From Haloferax volcanii DS2 (lineage in GTDB: Archaea > Halobacteriota > Halobacteria > Halobacteriales > Haloferacaceae): a stretch of 32,000 bases of DNA. The stretch is taken from the NCBI RefSeq assembly GCF_000025685.1, contig NC_013967.1, forward strand, positions 390,001 through 422,000, read 5' to 3'. The notes under the pieces are model-generated. The model ran no database searches. It saw nothing but the letters and a program-made list of their open reading frames with translations, and was not told the DNA's origin. This document shows positions 17,798 through 18,659 of the stretch, piece by piece. The position numbers and the translations under genes were made by a program. Numbering within the stretch: the stretch's first letter is position 1; each line of letters opens with the position of its first letter.

Positions 17798-18044
17798 TGT
17801 CAATTGTGGTATCGCATCCCATGGCGATGAATGTTTTGTCCGAACAGTTGATACGGTCGGGTCTGTGGTGGTGCCTTGGGTCGCGTCGAACTGGGAGTTC
17901 CCTACCAGTTTCGACGTACCTTGTTCTTGGCGCGTGGTGCGATAGACTCCGCCGACGGTTCCCGCCGTCCGGCGATTGAGGGAGAAGCTATGTGCTTCGG
18001 GTGCGAAGGGCAAGGTTCGACTCGGTGTGCTCGGTTCGGGTCGG

Positions 18045-18071
18045 GGTCGCAGATGTAGCTTTCCAGAGAAG
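18045..18071 (-). repeat. Head-only fragment of a further tRNA-linked unit
   Basis: Minus strand CTTCTCTGGAAAGCTACATCTGCGACC aligns with the heads of the two full units (CTTCTCTGAAAACTACACTCCGAGC and CTTCTTCCGAACTCAACCCACGTA). No hairpin or pseudo-tRNA end follows it. Confidence 0.5.
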
Positions 18072-18215
18072 CACCAGAAGCGGGAGTTGAACCGCAGTCG
18101 TTCGGCTCATCCGTTCGCCTCGCTCCGTAGTTCAATTCCCTCTCGGAAACGCTTCACGAAAACTGCCACCGCGATGCGCCGAGACGCATCGCTCGGAGTG
18201 TAGTTTTCAGAGAAG
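18072..18215 (-). repeat. tRNA-linked unit B (144 nt): interrupted outer stem, 8-bp hairpin, inverted T-loop hairpin and a diverged tRNA-Ser 3'-end copy
   Basis: It ends (18067-18093, plus strand) in a 23/27 match to the tRNA-Ser 3' end plus trailer. Hairpin: 18171-18178 pairs with 18185-18192 (GCGATGCG/CGCATCGC). Outer stem: 18151-18166 pairs with 18200-18216. Confidence 0.75.
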
Positions 18216-18342
18216 CGCCAGGAGAGGGATTTGAACCTCAGTCGCTTCGCTCCCTGGTTCAAATCCAACTGAGGCGTTCTTCCGAACTCGAAGTCCGCAG
18301 CGCGACGAGACGCGCTGCTACGTGGGTTGAGTTCGGAAGAAG
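18216..18342 (-). repeat. tRNA-linked unit A (127 nt): 13-bp outer stem, 8-bp hairpin, 11-bp inverted T-loop hairpin and an exact tRNA-Ser 3'-end copy
   Basis: 18211-18237 is identical to 18338-18364 (27 nt: the last 22 nt of the tRNA plus 5 nt of trailer). Outer stem: 18277-18289 pairs with 18329-18341. Hairpin: 18297-18304 pairs with 18311-18318 (GCAGCGCG/CGCGCTGC). GGATTTGAACC (18227-18237) pairs with GGTTCAAATCC (18256-18266). Confidence 0.8.
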
Positions 18343-18423
18343 CGCCAGGAGAGGGATTTGAACCCCCGATCCCAGAGGGAACACGCTTTCCAGGCGTGCG
18401 CCTTACCGCTCGGCCATCCTGGC
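18343..18423 (-). tRNA. tRNA-Ser (anticodon GGA), class II with a long variable arm
   Basis: Manual cloverleaf, 81 nt with CCA not encoded. Acceptor GCCAGGA/UCCUGGC plus discriminator G. D arm GCC-GAGCGGUAA-GGC. Anticodon arm CACGC-CUGGAAA-GCGUG. Variable arm UCCC-UCU-GGGA. T arm GGGGG-UUCAAAU-CCCUC. Confidence 0.9.
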
Positions 18424-18447
18424 TTACAACGCAACGTTTCCGCCTGG

Positions 18448-18457
18448 ATAATTTAAG
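18448..18457 (-). promoter_or_regulatory. TATA box (minus strand CTTAAATTAT) of tRNA-Ser
   Basis: Centred about 29 nt upstream of the tRNA 5' end at 18423. It overlaps the stop codon (18453-18455) of the upstream small ORF. Confidence 0.55.
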
Positions 18458-18659
18458 CCCTTCCTTTCCGTTCGAGTCGGGGTTCGATGACGTATGTCAC
18501 AGACGCGACCGCGACGCCGGACGCGACCGCCACCGCGGCGACCACCCCGAACGACGCGTCGATGCCGAGTCCGAGGAGGACCGCGCCCTGCGCGAGGACG
18601 CCCACGAGGAGGAGGCTCGCTGCGCCCCACGCGAGCGCGGACCGGACGCGGCGGGCCAC
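18453..18659 (-). CDS. hypothetical small membrane protein (2 TM)
   Basis: 68 aa. The GTG start lies 1 nt after the RidA stop. Two hydrophobic helices and strongly GC-rich third positions. Confidence 0.45.
   Translation of the reverse strand: MARRVRSALAWGAASLLLVGVLAQGAVLLGLGIDASFGVVAAVAVASGVAVASVTYVIEPRLERKGRA

Follow-up and report, generated by a model that had tools for sequence, protein, structure and literature searches.

Partial copies of tRNA 3' ends are usually read as the scars of large integrated elements and are used to delimit genomic islands. In Haloferax volcanii DS2, the gene for tRNA-Ser(GGA) is followed by two short units that each end in such a copy, and here the scar is a compact, structured and gene-free module. 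We asked whether these units are what is left of islands, DNA modules in their own right, functional trailers of the tRNA, or by-products of replication and repair. The window, that is, the whole stretch of DNA that was analysed, comprises 32,000 nt of the chromosome, and a chromosome coordinate equals the window coordinate plus 390000.

Structure of the array behind tRNA-Ser(GGA)

The span of the tRNA-Ser(GGA) gene (18343-18423) includes the discriminator, and ARAGORN adds one base (18342). The last 22 nt of the gene (18343-18364), from G52 of the T-stem to the discriminator, are called D0 below; on the 3' side of the gene, a 127-nt unit is followed by a 144-nt unit. A preliminary description had reported that the 27-mer GGTTCAAATCCCTCTCCTGGCGCTTCT of 18338-18364 recurs exactly at 18211-18237 and with 23/27 identity at 18067-18093, that the spacings between the copies are 127 and 144 nt, that a head-only fragment lies at 18045-18071, and that the units hold no ORF. 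All of this was reproduced. In shuffled sequence, the 27-mer had no match in 100 of 100 shuffles. The fragment is matched by approximately the first 20 nt of the unit 2 head and is orthologous to the flank that follows the array in other Haloferax genomes, and the units are free of plausible ORFs and lie in the intergenic region between HVO_0457 and tRNA-Ser(GGA). The array was missed by Tandem Repeats Finder, since the similarity between the unit bodies is only about 60%.

Each unit opens with a head hairpin. Next come a copy of the T-loop region in inverted orientation (I), which the preliminary description had overlooked, and a spacer rich in purines, and the unit closes with the last 22 nt of the tRNA, copied in direct orientation (D). 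The features, in window coordinates, are as follows:

18343-18423, minus strand: tRNA-Ser(GGA) gene, HVO_0458.tRNA (ARAGORN; Rfam tRNA model, 61.2 bits; gene name from the supplement of PMC7237163)
18267-18342, minus strand: unit 1 head hairpin, type A (inverted repeat; fold)
18256-18266, minus strand: I1, the inverted copy of the T-loop region in unit 1, GGATTTGAACC (pairs with D0 or D1 in predicted folds)
18238-18255, minus strand: unit 1 spacer, AGGGAGCGAAGCGACTGA, the 18-nt form of the s1 family (spacer comparison)
18216-18237, minus strand: D1, exact direct copy of the last 22 nt of the tRNA (sequence match)
18145-18215, minus strand: unit 2 head hairpin, type B (alignment; fold)
18130-18144, minus strand: I2, the inverted copy in unit 2, GAGAGGGAATTGAAC (14/15 against the reverse complement of the tRNA 3' region, by reading the sequence)
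18094-18129, minus strand: unit 2 spacer, the 36-nt form of the s1 family (spacer comparison)
18072-18093, minus strand: D2, the terminal, decayed copy, GGTTCAACTCCCGCTTCTGGTG (18/22 identity)
18045-18071, minus strand: truncated, head-B-like start of the old trailer, CTTCTCTGGAAAGCTACATCTGCGACC (alignment)
18029-18167, plus strand: transcript of the intergenic sRNA HVO_0457s, TSS at 18017 (supplements of PMC4983044, PMC6490895 and PMC7237163)
17615-17797, minus strand: CDS of HVO_0457, a 60-aa protein and the conserved downstream neighbour, TSS at 17917 (locus comparison and published TSS)

The type A head opens with the T-rich tract CTTCTTCC; its outer stem of 13 bp pairs 18277-18289 with 18329-18341, and the GC hairpin inside it has the loop TCTCGT. 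This head type was also found at loci L012, L073, L077, L087, L089 and L095-L104. The type B head has the stem GAAAAC/GTTTTC and the inner hairpin GCGATGCG-TCTCGG-CGCATCGC, and was also found at loci L007, L014, L018, L032, L037, L071 and L101-L103. Spacers of the s1 family are 18, 27 or 36 nt long by virtue of a 9-nt repeat, AGCGAGCGG. The identity of D1 to the tRNA region extends 5 nt into the next head (CTTCT, 18211-18215), and the decayed copy D2 is common to all close Haloferax strains, whatever their unit number. The unit bodies form strong hairpins (unit 1, -64.4 kcal/mol, z = -6.7), and the two units differ from each other by compensatory changes. No hairpin was obtained by folding the old trailer at 18045-18071 (z = -0.2). 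In every member of the Haloferacaceae examined, the variable intergenic space ends on its far side at HVO_0457.

Variation at the site and occurrence behind other tRNAs

Whether unit number varies between related genomes had been raised as a question, and it does. Among 81 tRNA-Ser(GGA) loci from 80 Haloferacaceae genomes, 35 had no unit, 39 had one and 7 had two, and the distance from the tRNA to the conserved downstream gene ranged from 78 nt at empty sites up to several hundred nt. The 10 additional close Haloferax strains had 1-3 units each, arranged as A', B, B-A', A-B or A-B-A', together with an identical HVO_0457 protein, near-identical flanks and the shared decayed end copy. Internal D copies matched the tRNA at 22/22 positions in 7 of 7 cases, and terminal D copies at a mean of 20.5/22. 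In Hrr. ezzemoulense DSM 17463, the tRNA gene at this locus appears to carry U55G and U64G, although the D copy beside it is intact. Head and spacer types combined freely: the order is A-B in the window and B-A in L007 and L032. This pattern shows gain, loss and re-ordering of modules via recombination at the D copies. As a hypervariable marker, the modules may also be used for strain typing.

The preliminary description had listed the decay of larger elements among its explanations. On this reading, the modules are ordinary att remnants, left by large integrase islands or proviruses that integrated repeatedly and were later deleted to two arms. Direct repeats of tRNA 3' ends are the classic footprint of integration, and the units carry an exact direct repeat of 22-27 nt that runs from the T-arm to the 3' end of the tRNA, as do attL and attR of tyrosine-integrase islands, for which 18-42 bp have been reported. 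Haloferax gibbonsii LR2-5 has three tRNA-integrated islands with XerC/D integrases, IGE1-3, which measure 8.9-20 kb, lie in tRNA-Pro, -Glu and -Arg and are bounded by 18-42 bp repeats (PMC7921747). Displaced tRNA 3' fragments are also produced by tyrosine-integrase islands of the T-loop sublocation class in Thermococcales (PMC9897764). As in integrase-island arrays, the oldest copy is outermost, and other insertions, too, have a hot spot behind tRNA-Ser (L036, L088). However, the spacing between copies was 73-202 nt in 53 units, with no intermediate sizes, and throughout the 80 genomes and 10 strains it always stayed in this range and was ORF-less. In no genome examined did an integrase, an integrase fragment or any other gene lie between the repeat copies, nor was there a second, distant copy of the 22-mer; the absence of an integrase-bearing island at this position was the point on which the novelty of the units had been made to depend. 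Unlike integrase islands, the units have an insert of 100-180 nt that always holds an inverted T-loop copy and two conserved hairpins, their insert families serve many tRNAs, and the same compact architecture stands behind 16 tRNA types. Module sequences are also absent from viral and plasmid collections. We therefore consider it very improbable that the modules are such remnants, and the decay of larger elements is disfavoured. tDNA fragments alone are insufficient for calling an island or a pseudo-tRNA.

A few kb-sized inserts sit beyond the array and contain an IS630-like transposase (L036), metal ATPase and metal-transport genes (L088) or unknown proteins; no integrase was found in them. 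A regex screen near the arrays had one match, a tyrosine recombinase at L258, but this gene is located 5' of the tRNA and has no relation to the module. The Pfam scan of the window ORFs gave housekeeping families only, with no integrase, Cas1-solo, PolB or cas gene in the window.

Units of this kind are present in numerous genomes and also stand behind many other tRNAs. In hypersaline metagenomes, at least 16 other tRNA species were followed by modules of this architecture, which had head and spacer families in common and in each case the acceptor strand of the cognate tRNA, and 45 modules were located 31-81 nt behind 16 tRNA isoacceptors, among which the spacer families s1 and s2 and the head families are shared. 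The 11 nt after the T-loop were those of the cognate tRNA in 29 of the 45 modules and agreed at 10 or more of the 11 positions in 37. All 62 of the I-N-D hairpins in 737 kb of Haloferacaceae sequence were tRNA-linked, and spacer length across modules was 18-101 nt. The units belong to a widespread double-hairpin module family behind haloarchaeal tRNAs, and this family is apparently undescribed. Only in some families does I repeat the tRNA 3' end in full, in inverted orientation.

Several other matches were set aside. Among 13 "orphan" hairpins at the far ends of islands, most lay within arrays or beside tRNAs missed by ARAGORN (intron-containing or cut by the contig end), and the remaining candidates were palindromes of other kinds. 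Matches to the hairpin pattern in low-GC sequence and gut metagenomes were different objects. IMG/VR was scanned with the 22-mer, the I-N-D hairpin pattern, the s2 core and the I/s1 junction, and the phage and plasmid collections by blastn of the units; nothing similar was present in IMG/VR, the INPHARED phages or the PLSDB plasmids, the IMG/VR matches being another bacterial palindrome or chance coding matches.

Transcription and RNA structure of the modules

Published H. volcanii data contain transcripts that pass the tRNA 3' end, which the preliminary description had left to be looked for. The tRNA-Ser(GGA) transcript covers 408217-408581 of the chromosome and so reaches window position 18217, the end of D1 (PMC6490895 supplement). 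RNA 3' ends were mapped at 18329, 14 nt past the tRNA, and at 18206, 10 nt past D1, and both were classed with the T-stretch motif (PMC7237163 supplement). T-richness behind the D copies equals that behind real tRNAs. The modules are transcribed as read-through tails of the tRNA. In the published data, each D copy supplies its own terminator tract, and as a side effect, read-through from the tRNA crosses a module and stops just past D. The sRNA HVO_0457s is read from the opposite strand and overlaps, in antisense, the old trailer, D2, spacer 2 and I2 as well as a portion of head B.

These data bear on the reading that the modules are structured 3' trailers of the host, co-transcribed with the tRNA and acting as a fail-safe terminator or insulator, as a signal for pre-tRNA processing or decay, or as a source of stable sRNA; D and I would then be kept for pairing with each other and with the tRNA, and copy number would change via duplication and unequal crossing-over only. 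High-coverage transcription runs through unit 1 and has its stops past the tRNA and past D1, as expected of such a trailer. The stems covary between paralogous loci, which points to hairpins conserved by compensatory changes. The non-palindromic loop CGAAC..GTGAG, possibly a tandem G.A motif judging from its sequence, was the same in all of the 18/18 short heads compared, which come from about 10 tRNA types, and the T.T and C.A mismatches of spacer s2 are conserved. Substitutions in I are mostly wobble-compatible (A>G or C>U) and preserve G.U pairs in the tRNA-sense RNA. The read-through RNA is predicted to be bistable: a cloverleaf with two hairpins has -101.4 kcal/mol, and an alternative, in which energy prediction pairs D0 with I and the 5' acceptor strand of the tRNA with D1, has -104.5 kcal/mol. 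The spread of the modules across genera and tRNAs also agrees with a function. On the other hand, the modules are dispensable, being absent behind tRNA-Ser(GGA) in 35 of the 81 loci; their number and order differ among strains of one species complex, and the terminal D copies decay. As to the strand under selection, the sense strand folds better in 46 of 53 units, but the whole-helix counts of G.T versus A.C mismatches have no strand preference, the G.U versus A.C tallies being symmetric between strands or confounded by conserved loop motifs. The opposite strand is transcribed too. No Rfam family matches the modules in scans at E<=10 for the window and E<=1 for other loci, and circRNA-seq shows no circular RNA from this locus (PMC7714728). 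In our judgement, this explanation, the main rival of the one preferred below, is somewhat unlikely. If the modules are functional RNAs, they represent a new class of tRNA trailer element that affects termination or maturation.

Origin of the modules and comparison with known systems

The explanation that we tentatively prefer is that the units are dispersed, non-autonomous DNA repeat modules, which are added, lost and shuffled by recombination at the copies of the tRNA 3' end, and are not the debris of large islands. A module begins with the head hairpin, starting with the T-rich terminator tract of the tRNA, and continues with I (T-loop and 3' T-stem), a variable spacer, D (G52 to discriminator) and a T-rich tract. 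Internal copies keep the sequence of the tRNA, and decay affects the copy that is outermost and oldest. Besides the variation at one syntenic site and the dispersal of the family, the upkeep of the hairpins supports this explanation: stems covary, I and D change jointly in L012, L036, L077 and L211, and D is more conserved in its paired part (94%) than in the unpaired acceptor part (84%). The putative exchange site is the segment from the T-loop to the 3' end, which is also what XerC/D-type integrases duplicate in genuine Haloferax islands. With its 14-17 bp of the duplex T-arm, the hairpin of I, spacer and D could serve as an attachment site in folded form; if the tRNA gene exchanged strands with a circle [I-spacer-D-head], the observed order tRNA-head-I-spacer-D would result. 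Several points speak against this explanation. No recombinase linked to any module was found, no free or extrachromosomal copy of a module was seen, and the viral and plasmid collections contained nothing similar. Unequal homologous recombination or deletion between D copies or similar heads suffices for all variation at the Haloferax locus, and therefore site-specific exchange is not required. The arrival of a module at a new tRNA with the acceptor strand of that very tRNA is not accounted for. In addition, the invariant CGAAC..GTGAG loop, the s2 mismatches and the wobble-compatible changes in I look like constraint at the RNA level.

A different origin would be a by-product of replication and repair, in which fold-back template switching at the T-arm of a highly transcribed, hairpin-rich tRNA gene produced modules that are neither mobile nor functional; the tRNA 3' end and trailer would be re-copied first in inverted and then in direct orientation, for a direct-inverted-direct arrangement, and slippage and gene conversion would follow. 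D0, head and I do form one long degenerate palindrome. Left of I in the window, GAAGAA.CGCC or GAAGCG..GAGAG is kept, which is the reverse complement of acceptor and trailer, and in modules of tRNA-Arg(TCT) and tRNA-Lys(CTT) the inverted copy extends over the acceptor, with agreement at 8-9 of 11 positions. The 9-nt steps in spacer length are typical of slippage, and the mismatch patterns are symmetric between strands. But most modules have no inverted acceptor left of I (mean 3.5/11 versus 3.0/11 in the control), and I and D are always parted by a spacer. Spacer cores of about 30 nt (AGTCGCGCGCAGCGAAGCGAGCACGTCT) and head motifs are common to different tRNAs, and therefore independent local accidents cannot be their source. 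We regard this origin as decidedly unlikely.

Returning to modules that recombine as DNA, a more specific proposal is that they are miniature, ORF-less integrative cassettes, in which I-spacer-D acts as a folded single-stranded attachment site that mimics the T-arm of the target. This would be a system of Halobacteria like that of integrons or CTX-phi, placed on tRNA genes, with a tyrosine recombinase acting in trans and polar arrays at many tRNAs as the product; we consider it unlikely. The attC sites of integrons and the attP(+) hairpin of CTX-phi are recombination sites made of a folded single strand, and attP(+) is formed from two inverted dif-like sites. As in these systems, inverted target-like cores flank a variable centre, mismatches are conserved, the site ends each unit of a tandem array beside the primary chromosomal site, and ORF-less units exist. 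I-spacer-D forms an imperfect palindrome of the attC type, with spacers of 18-101 nt and covarying stems, which is a resemblance only. Unlike attC and CTX-phi, the modules have no linked IntI or Xer gene, and their core boxes differ from GTTRRRY and dif. An integron proper would have an adjacent intI gene with attI; there is no integrase in the window, and the boxes are GGATTTGAACC/GGTTCAAATCC, not RYYYAAC/GTTRRRY. The miniature integrative element and the tandemly duplicated, tRNA-linked RNA module, both proposed in the preliminary description, stay viable. If mobile, the modules would be smaller than any tRNA-targeting integrative unit known so far and would make archaeal site-specific recombination tractable to study.

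Casposons offer another comparison. In Methanosarcina, casposons arranged in tandem at the 3' end of tRNA-Leu have a single target-site duplication in common, and casposon target duplications are long, with 14 nt and up to 35 nt (PMC4779613). Likewise, one tRNA 3'-end site is reused by the units, which are parted only by the duplicated target. Casposons are multi-kb elements with terminal inverted repeats, Cas1 and PolB; in contrast, the boundaries of the units lack inverted repeats. Consistent with this difference, the head starts (CTTCTTCC.., TTTTCGAC..) are not complementary to the spacer ends or the T-loop end, by reading the sequences. A MITE was rejected as well, the sole inverted repeat being internal (D0 or D versus I).

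The PATE and SMR elements of Haloquadratum walsbyi are small palindromic repeats without a transposase (PMC3119063). Like these and like the REP, REPIN and BIME sequences of bacteria, the units are about 50-150 nt long, non-coding, intergenic, strain-variable and often co-transcribed, with near-terminal palindromes. Those repeats, unlike the units, are not tied to tRNA 3' ends and carry no copy of the end of a neighbouring gene, and PATEs and SMRs have no long flanking repeat. Set against IS200/IS605-derived PATEs, the units have two hairpins each, but a flanking repeat of 22 nt is present.

Splicing at BHB motifs, or a spare 3' half, was rejected, since circRNA-seq lists 7 BHB-flanked circles and none from the tRNA-Ser(GGA) locus (PMC7714728). 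The D copies have no tRNA-like fold, and the Rfam tRNA model matches real tRNAs only, so neither a t-element nor a tRNA pseudogene was accepted. t-elements are tRNA-like processing signals, for example upstream of the Haloferax 5S rRNA, and, like the units, they derive from tRNA and lie within a transcribed spacer of this organism. Mobile or functional alike, the modules account for the "partial tRNAs adjacent to the full copy" in curated Haloferax annotations. A CRISPR array was also rejected: the head-I-spacer segments that would be its "spacers" share homology with each other, and the window has no cas genes. The likeness to CRISPR is confined to the polarity of the array and the degenerate terminal repeat.

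The tRNA-Ser(GGA) array in the window and its transcripts

The module array trailing the tRNA-Ser(GGA) gene is a real feature of the window, and its main landmarks are located as follows.

18343-18423, minus strand: tRNA-Ser(GGA) gene
18256-18266: inverted copy (I) of the T-loop and 3' T-stem in unit 1, GGATTTGAACC
18130-18144: inverted copy (I) in unit 2, GAGAGGGAATTGAAC

In agreement with the preliminary description, the last 22 nt of the tRNA (D0) and 5 nt of trailer were repeated exactly 127 nt downstream (direct copy D1), a further copy of this 27-mer was present 144 nt beyond the first with 23/27 identity (D2), and the unit heads could be aligned with each other, with a truncated head-like start after the last copy. 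Not even one match to the 27-mer arose by chance in 100 shuffles. Rfam matched only the tRNA in the array region. Exact matches to Haloferax volcanii DS2 entries were obtained for three proteins encoded beside the array (HVO_0457 and neighbours). The neighbours in the window are housekeeping genes (leucyl-tRNA synthetase, thermosome subunit, RidA, cytochrome bd, threonine dehydratase, citrate synthase and others), and integrase, transposase and Cas1 genes are all absent from the window. On the tRNA strand, each unit consists of a head hairpin, I, a purine-rich spacer and D, and the head hairpin opens with a T-rich tract immediately 3' of the tRNA. The unit 1 head has an outer stem of 13 bp and an inner GC hairpin with the loop TCTCGT; the unit 2 head has unlike stem sequences and a like design. 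I has two possible pairing partners: the downstream D, with which it forms a second hairpin in the unit, and the tRNA's own 3' end.

The offset between window and chromosome (+390000) was fixed by aligning two published transcription-start sequences. In a TEX-enriched 3'-end map, minus-strand RNA 3' ends were placed at chromosome positions 408329 and 408206, which are 14 and 137 nt past the tRNA (the latter 10 nt past D1), with mean coverages of 14,711 and 8,896, respectively; coverage was continuous at the second, and both were assigned to the T-stretch motif class (PMC7237163). The 365-nt transcript 'tRNA 0458' at 408217-408581 (PMC6490895) corresponds to the tRNA and unit 1 as far as the D1 end. 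These published data indicate that transcription passes the tRNA 3' end and has a second stop just past the first copy; module and tRNA are co-transcribed. The 8 nt after D copies contain 3.7-4.3 T, as after real tRNAs, versus a background of 1.2, so every copy carries a terminator-like tract. For the observed read-through RNA (tRNA, unit 1 and 10 nt), two near-isoenergetic states were predicted: the cloverleaf with two hairpins at -101.4 kcal/mol and an alternative state at -104.5 kcal/mol. The predicted mean pair probabilities of D0:I and I:D1 were 0.64 and 0.36, respectively.

The sRNA 0457s is a 139-nt plus-strand RNA at 408029-408167 (PMC6490895), with a start at 408017 that has a promoter motif, and HVO_0457 starts at 407917 (PMC4983044). 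By these coordinates, an antisense sRNA overlies unit 2. HVO_0457s (window 18017-18167, plus strand) has its start within the old tRNA trailer and crosses D2, spacer 2 and I2 in antisense orientation, and it therefore contains an 18/22 complement of the tRNA-Ser 3' end and a T-loop-like stretch. The promoter and 5' region of HVO_0457 (..AAGACTCATATGTGTGGGTAGTGTTGACACGGGTGACGATGCC.., window 17798-17917) has an orthologous stretch in loci L002-L093 from other genomes, a conservation across Halorubrum, Halobellus and Haloparvum that is unusual for intergenic DNA. HVO_0457 is PF26396 'HacaP' in precomputed matches; our Pfam scan gave no match. On the other side of the tRNA, a 68-codon ORF (window 18424-18630, minus strand) has its 3' end flush with the tRNA 5' end and contains the published tRNA transcript start (window 18581); precomputed matches for related loci give DUF7981, and our Pfam scan gave no family.

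The same site in other genomes and close strains

A degenerate 22-mer was scanned once across 185,579 species-representative genomes and found 94 loci, one per genome, nearly all in Halorubrum, Haloferax and relatives. In 80 genomes and the window, the tRNA is followed at variable distance by one small gene (MPDTK.GRE.KG..). Unit number varied among these orthologous loci: 0, 1 and 2 units were present in 35, 39 and 7 loci, with tRNA-to-gene intervals of 78-200 nt, approximately 250-300 nt and upward, and longer still, respectively. In Haloferax, the head was present in 16/16 species and the I/D pair also in 15/16, and Halorubrum species carried zero, one or two units. The heads fall into several sequence types, all hairpin-forming, and the spacers into two families, s1 (AGGGAGYGA, n copies of AGCGAGCGG, then AACGACTGA; 18, 27 or 36 nt) and s2 (at least 47 nt); head and spacer types are freely combined across loci. 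The idea that larger islands decayed to these modules is disfavoured, since copies are spaced only 73-202 nt apart, without an ORF in every case, and the few inserts of 1-4 kb, all beyond the array, contain no integrase. As no size data fit it, we regard this origin as very improbable.

Other sequences were found near the arrays. In two loci, other DNA separates the array from the conserved neighbour gene: an IS630-like transposase in L036 and, in L088, a block of approximately 4 kb that encodes a heavy-metal ATPase and carries an ArsR-like gene. The tRNA-Ser tail region is thus apparently a general insertion hot spot. Among L009, L010, L030, L040, L044 and L060, an AT-rich palindrome (..TATTTATAA..N..TTATAAATA..) occurs downstream of arrays, and an inverted-repeat element (CCAAAGCCCCAGC..GCCCCTTTGAG) between array and conserved gene. 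In Haloferax larsenii (L018), a tandem repeat made up of pyrimidines only (CTCTTCCCACATCTTCCCACATCTTCCCACCTCTCCC..) comes immediately after the decayed D copy, approximately 170-330 nt past the tRNA T-loop. In Halorubrum ezzemoulense DSM 17463 (L017:335-560), the tRNA-Ser(GGA) gene is GGTGCAAATCCCGC, with U55>G and U64>G compared with L009, and the copy located 126 nt further downstream has the canonical sequence. An error in the assembly, which has 10x coverage, could account for this, as could a damaged gene beside an intact spare 3' end.

In ten assemblies, the HVO_0457 protein is identical to that of the window and the flanks are near-identical. Named by unit type, their arrays were A-B (as in the window), A-B-A', B-A', A' alone, B alone and a long-spacer A variant, and all had the same terminus, with GGTTCAACTCCCGCTTCTGGTG as the decayed copy and the old trailer next to it. 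When all loci were counted, the D copies inside arrays were perfect in 7/7 cases, and terminal copies averaged 20.5/22. This indicates that the arrays are polar and hypervariable, with units gained, lost or shuffled within the time that strains take to diverge. All the variants seen can be accounted for by unequal recombination, whether between D copies or between similar heads such as A and A'; a cross of an A' array with a B-A' array, for instance, yields A'-B-A'. The variation within the locus is consistent with site-specific exchange but does not need it.

Modules behind other tRNAs and their conserved hairpins

One metagenome scan with the pattern GGATTTGAACC-N16-46-GGTTCAAATCC gave at least 120 loci. 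Among the matches listed, after removal of an unrelated bacterial palindrome, 63 hairpins were in high-GC contigs of hypersaline samples, 50 of the 63 just downstream of a called tRNA in fixed orientation, and 45 modules sat 31-81 nt behind tRNAs of 16 isoacceptors (Asp, Ser, Glu x2, Leu x2, Gly x2, Pro, Arg x2, Met, Lys, Val x2 and Cys). The units do occur at further loci, and the modules form a dispersed family anchored at tRNAs. The 11 nt after the D T-loop were set against the acceptor strand and discriminator of the tRNA next to each module: they were identical in 29/45 modules and differed at no more than one of the 11 positions in 37/45 (again among the matches listed); the D copies are cognate to the adjoining tRNA. 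In 737 kb of Haloferacaceae sequence, 62/62 such hairpins were located at a tRNA. Most apparent orphan hairpins proved to be neighbours of tRNAs missed by ARAGORN or to lie inside arrays. In the metagenome contig Ga0207754_100019 (L225), two adjoining tRNA-Asp(GTC) genes are followed by a three-module array with differing head types, so arrays are not confined to tRNA-Ser.

The module hairpins are conserved. The short head (approximately 40 nt) has a covarying 5-bp stem around an invariant CGAAC..GTGAG in 18/18 cases, with the pairing potential C-G, G.A, A.G, A-U and C-G; the long head, the type found in the window, has an inner GC hairpin with the loop TCTCGT or TTTCAT. The s2 outer stem covaries (GGAAG/CTTCC, GCCAG/CTGGC, ATCAG/CTGAT and others), with both sides changed in 3-11 of 23 sequences per pair, around a conserved core with T.T and C.A mismatches. 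I and D change together (GTG/CAC in L012, T/A in L036 and L077, and, with CGC in the tRNA itself, GGTG/CACC in L211), and the I-pairing part of D is conserved at 94% versus 84% for the acceptor part. These hairpins, together with the bistable fold predicted for the read-through RNA and termination after D1, could belong to a functional RNA trailer, for which the invariant loop motif and the wobble-tolerant changes in I also speak. However, the modules are dispensable and the mismatch statistics are strand-symmetric, and we consider such a function rather unlikely. A pure by-product of replication or repair would agree with the long degenerate palindrome and the 9-nt slippage, but it leaves unexplained the specific cores common to different tRNAs, behind which both s1 and s2 recur; we judge it improbable.

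No Rfam family covers the modules. In the curated annotation of Haloferax gibbonsii LR2-5, '11 partial tRNAs' were reported (PMC7921747). In the literature searched, neither the inverted copy nor the hairpin architecture nor the family was described, which is not proof of novelty, and the modules resemble known kinds of sequence, namely tDNA fragments and small palindromic repeat families.

A DNA-level repeat element as the favoured reading

We tentatively favour, at somewhat less than even probability, the reading that the modules are a DNA-level repeat element, because no other reading covers several of the features unless further assumptions are made. Exchange in the T-loop-to-3' segment would leave a cognate 3'-end copy, and the decay of the outermost copy, the dispensability of modules and the mixing of parts would also be covered. 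The I-spacer-D hairpin reproduces the duplex T-arm, and one exchange with a circle [I-spacer-D-head] would give the order tRNA-head-I-spacer-D. Such logic of a folded site and a single exchange is known from CTX-phi and integron attC sites. In genuine islands of Haloferax that carry XerC/D integrases, the duplicated part of the tRNA 3' end is 18-42 bp long (PMC7921747). Against a DNA-level element count that no recombinase was linked to a module, that no free module copy was seen, that viral and plasmid collections contained nothing similar, and that it gives no account of how a module gains the acceptor strand of a new tRNA.

A different palindrome was present in approximately 70 viral contigs (L105-L177, IMG/VR) and many gut contigs among L178-L297, with a GC of approximately 0.6. 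It is built from the 3' half of a bacterial tRNA, present once inverted and once direct (TAGCGGGGCAT-GGATTTGAACC-GTGGACCTCTGG..CCAGAGGTCCAC-GGTTCAAATCC-ATGCCCCGCTACCA), and ARAGORN called no tRNA at it. It often lies 30-400 nt from the contig end, and two contigs carry it twice each.
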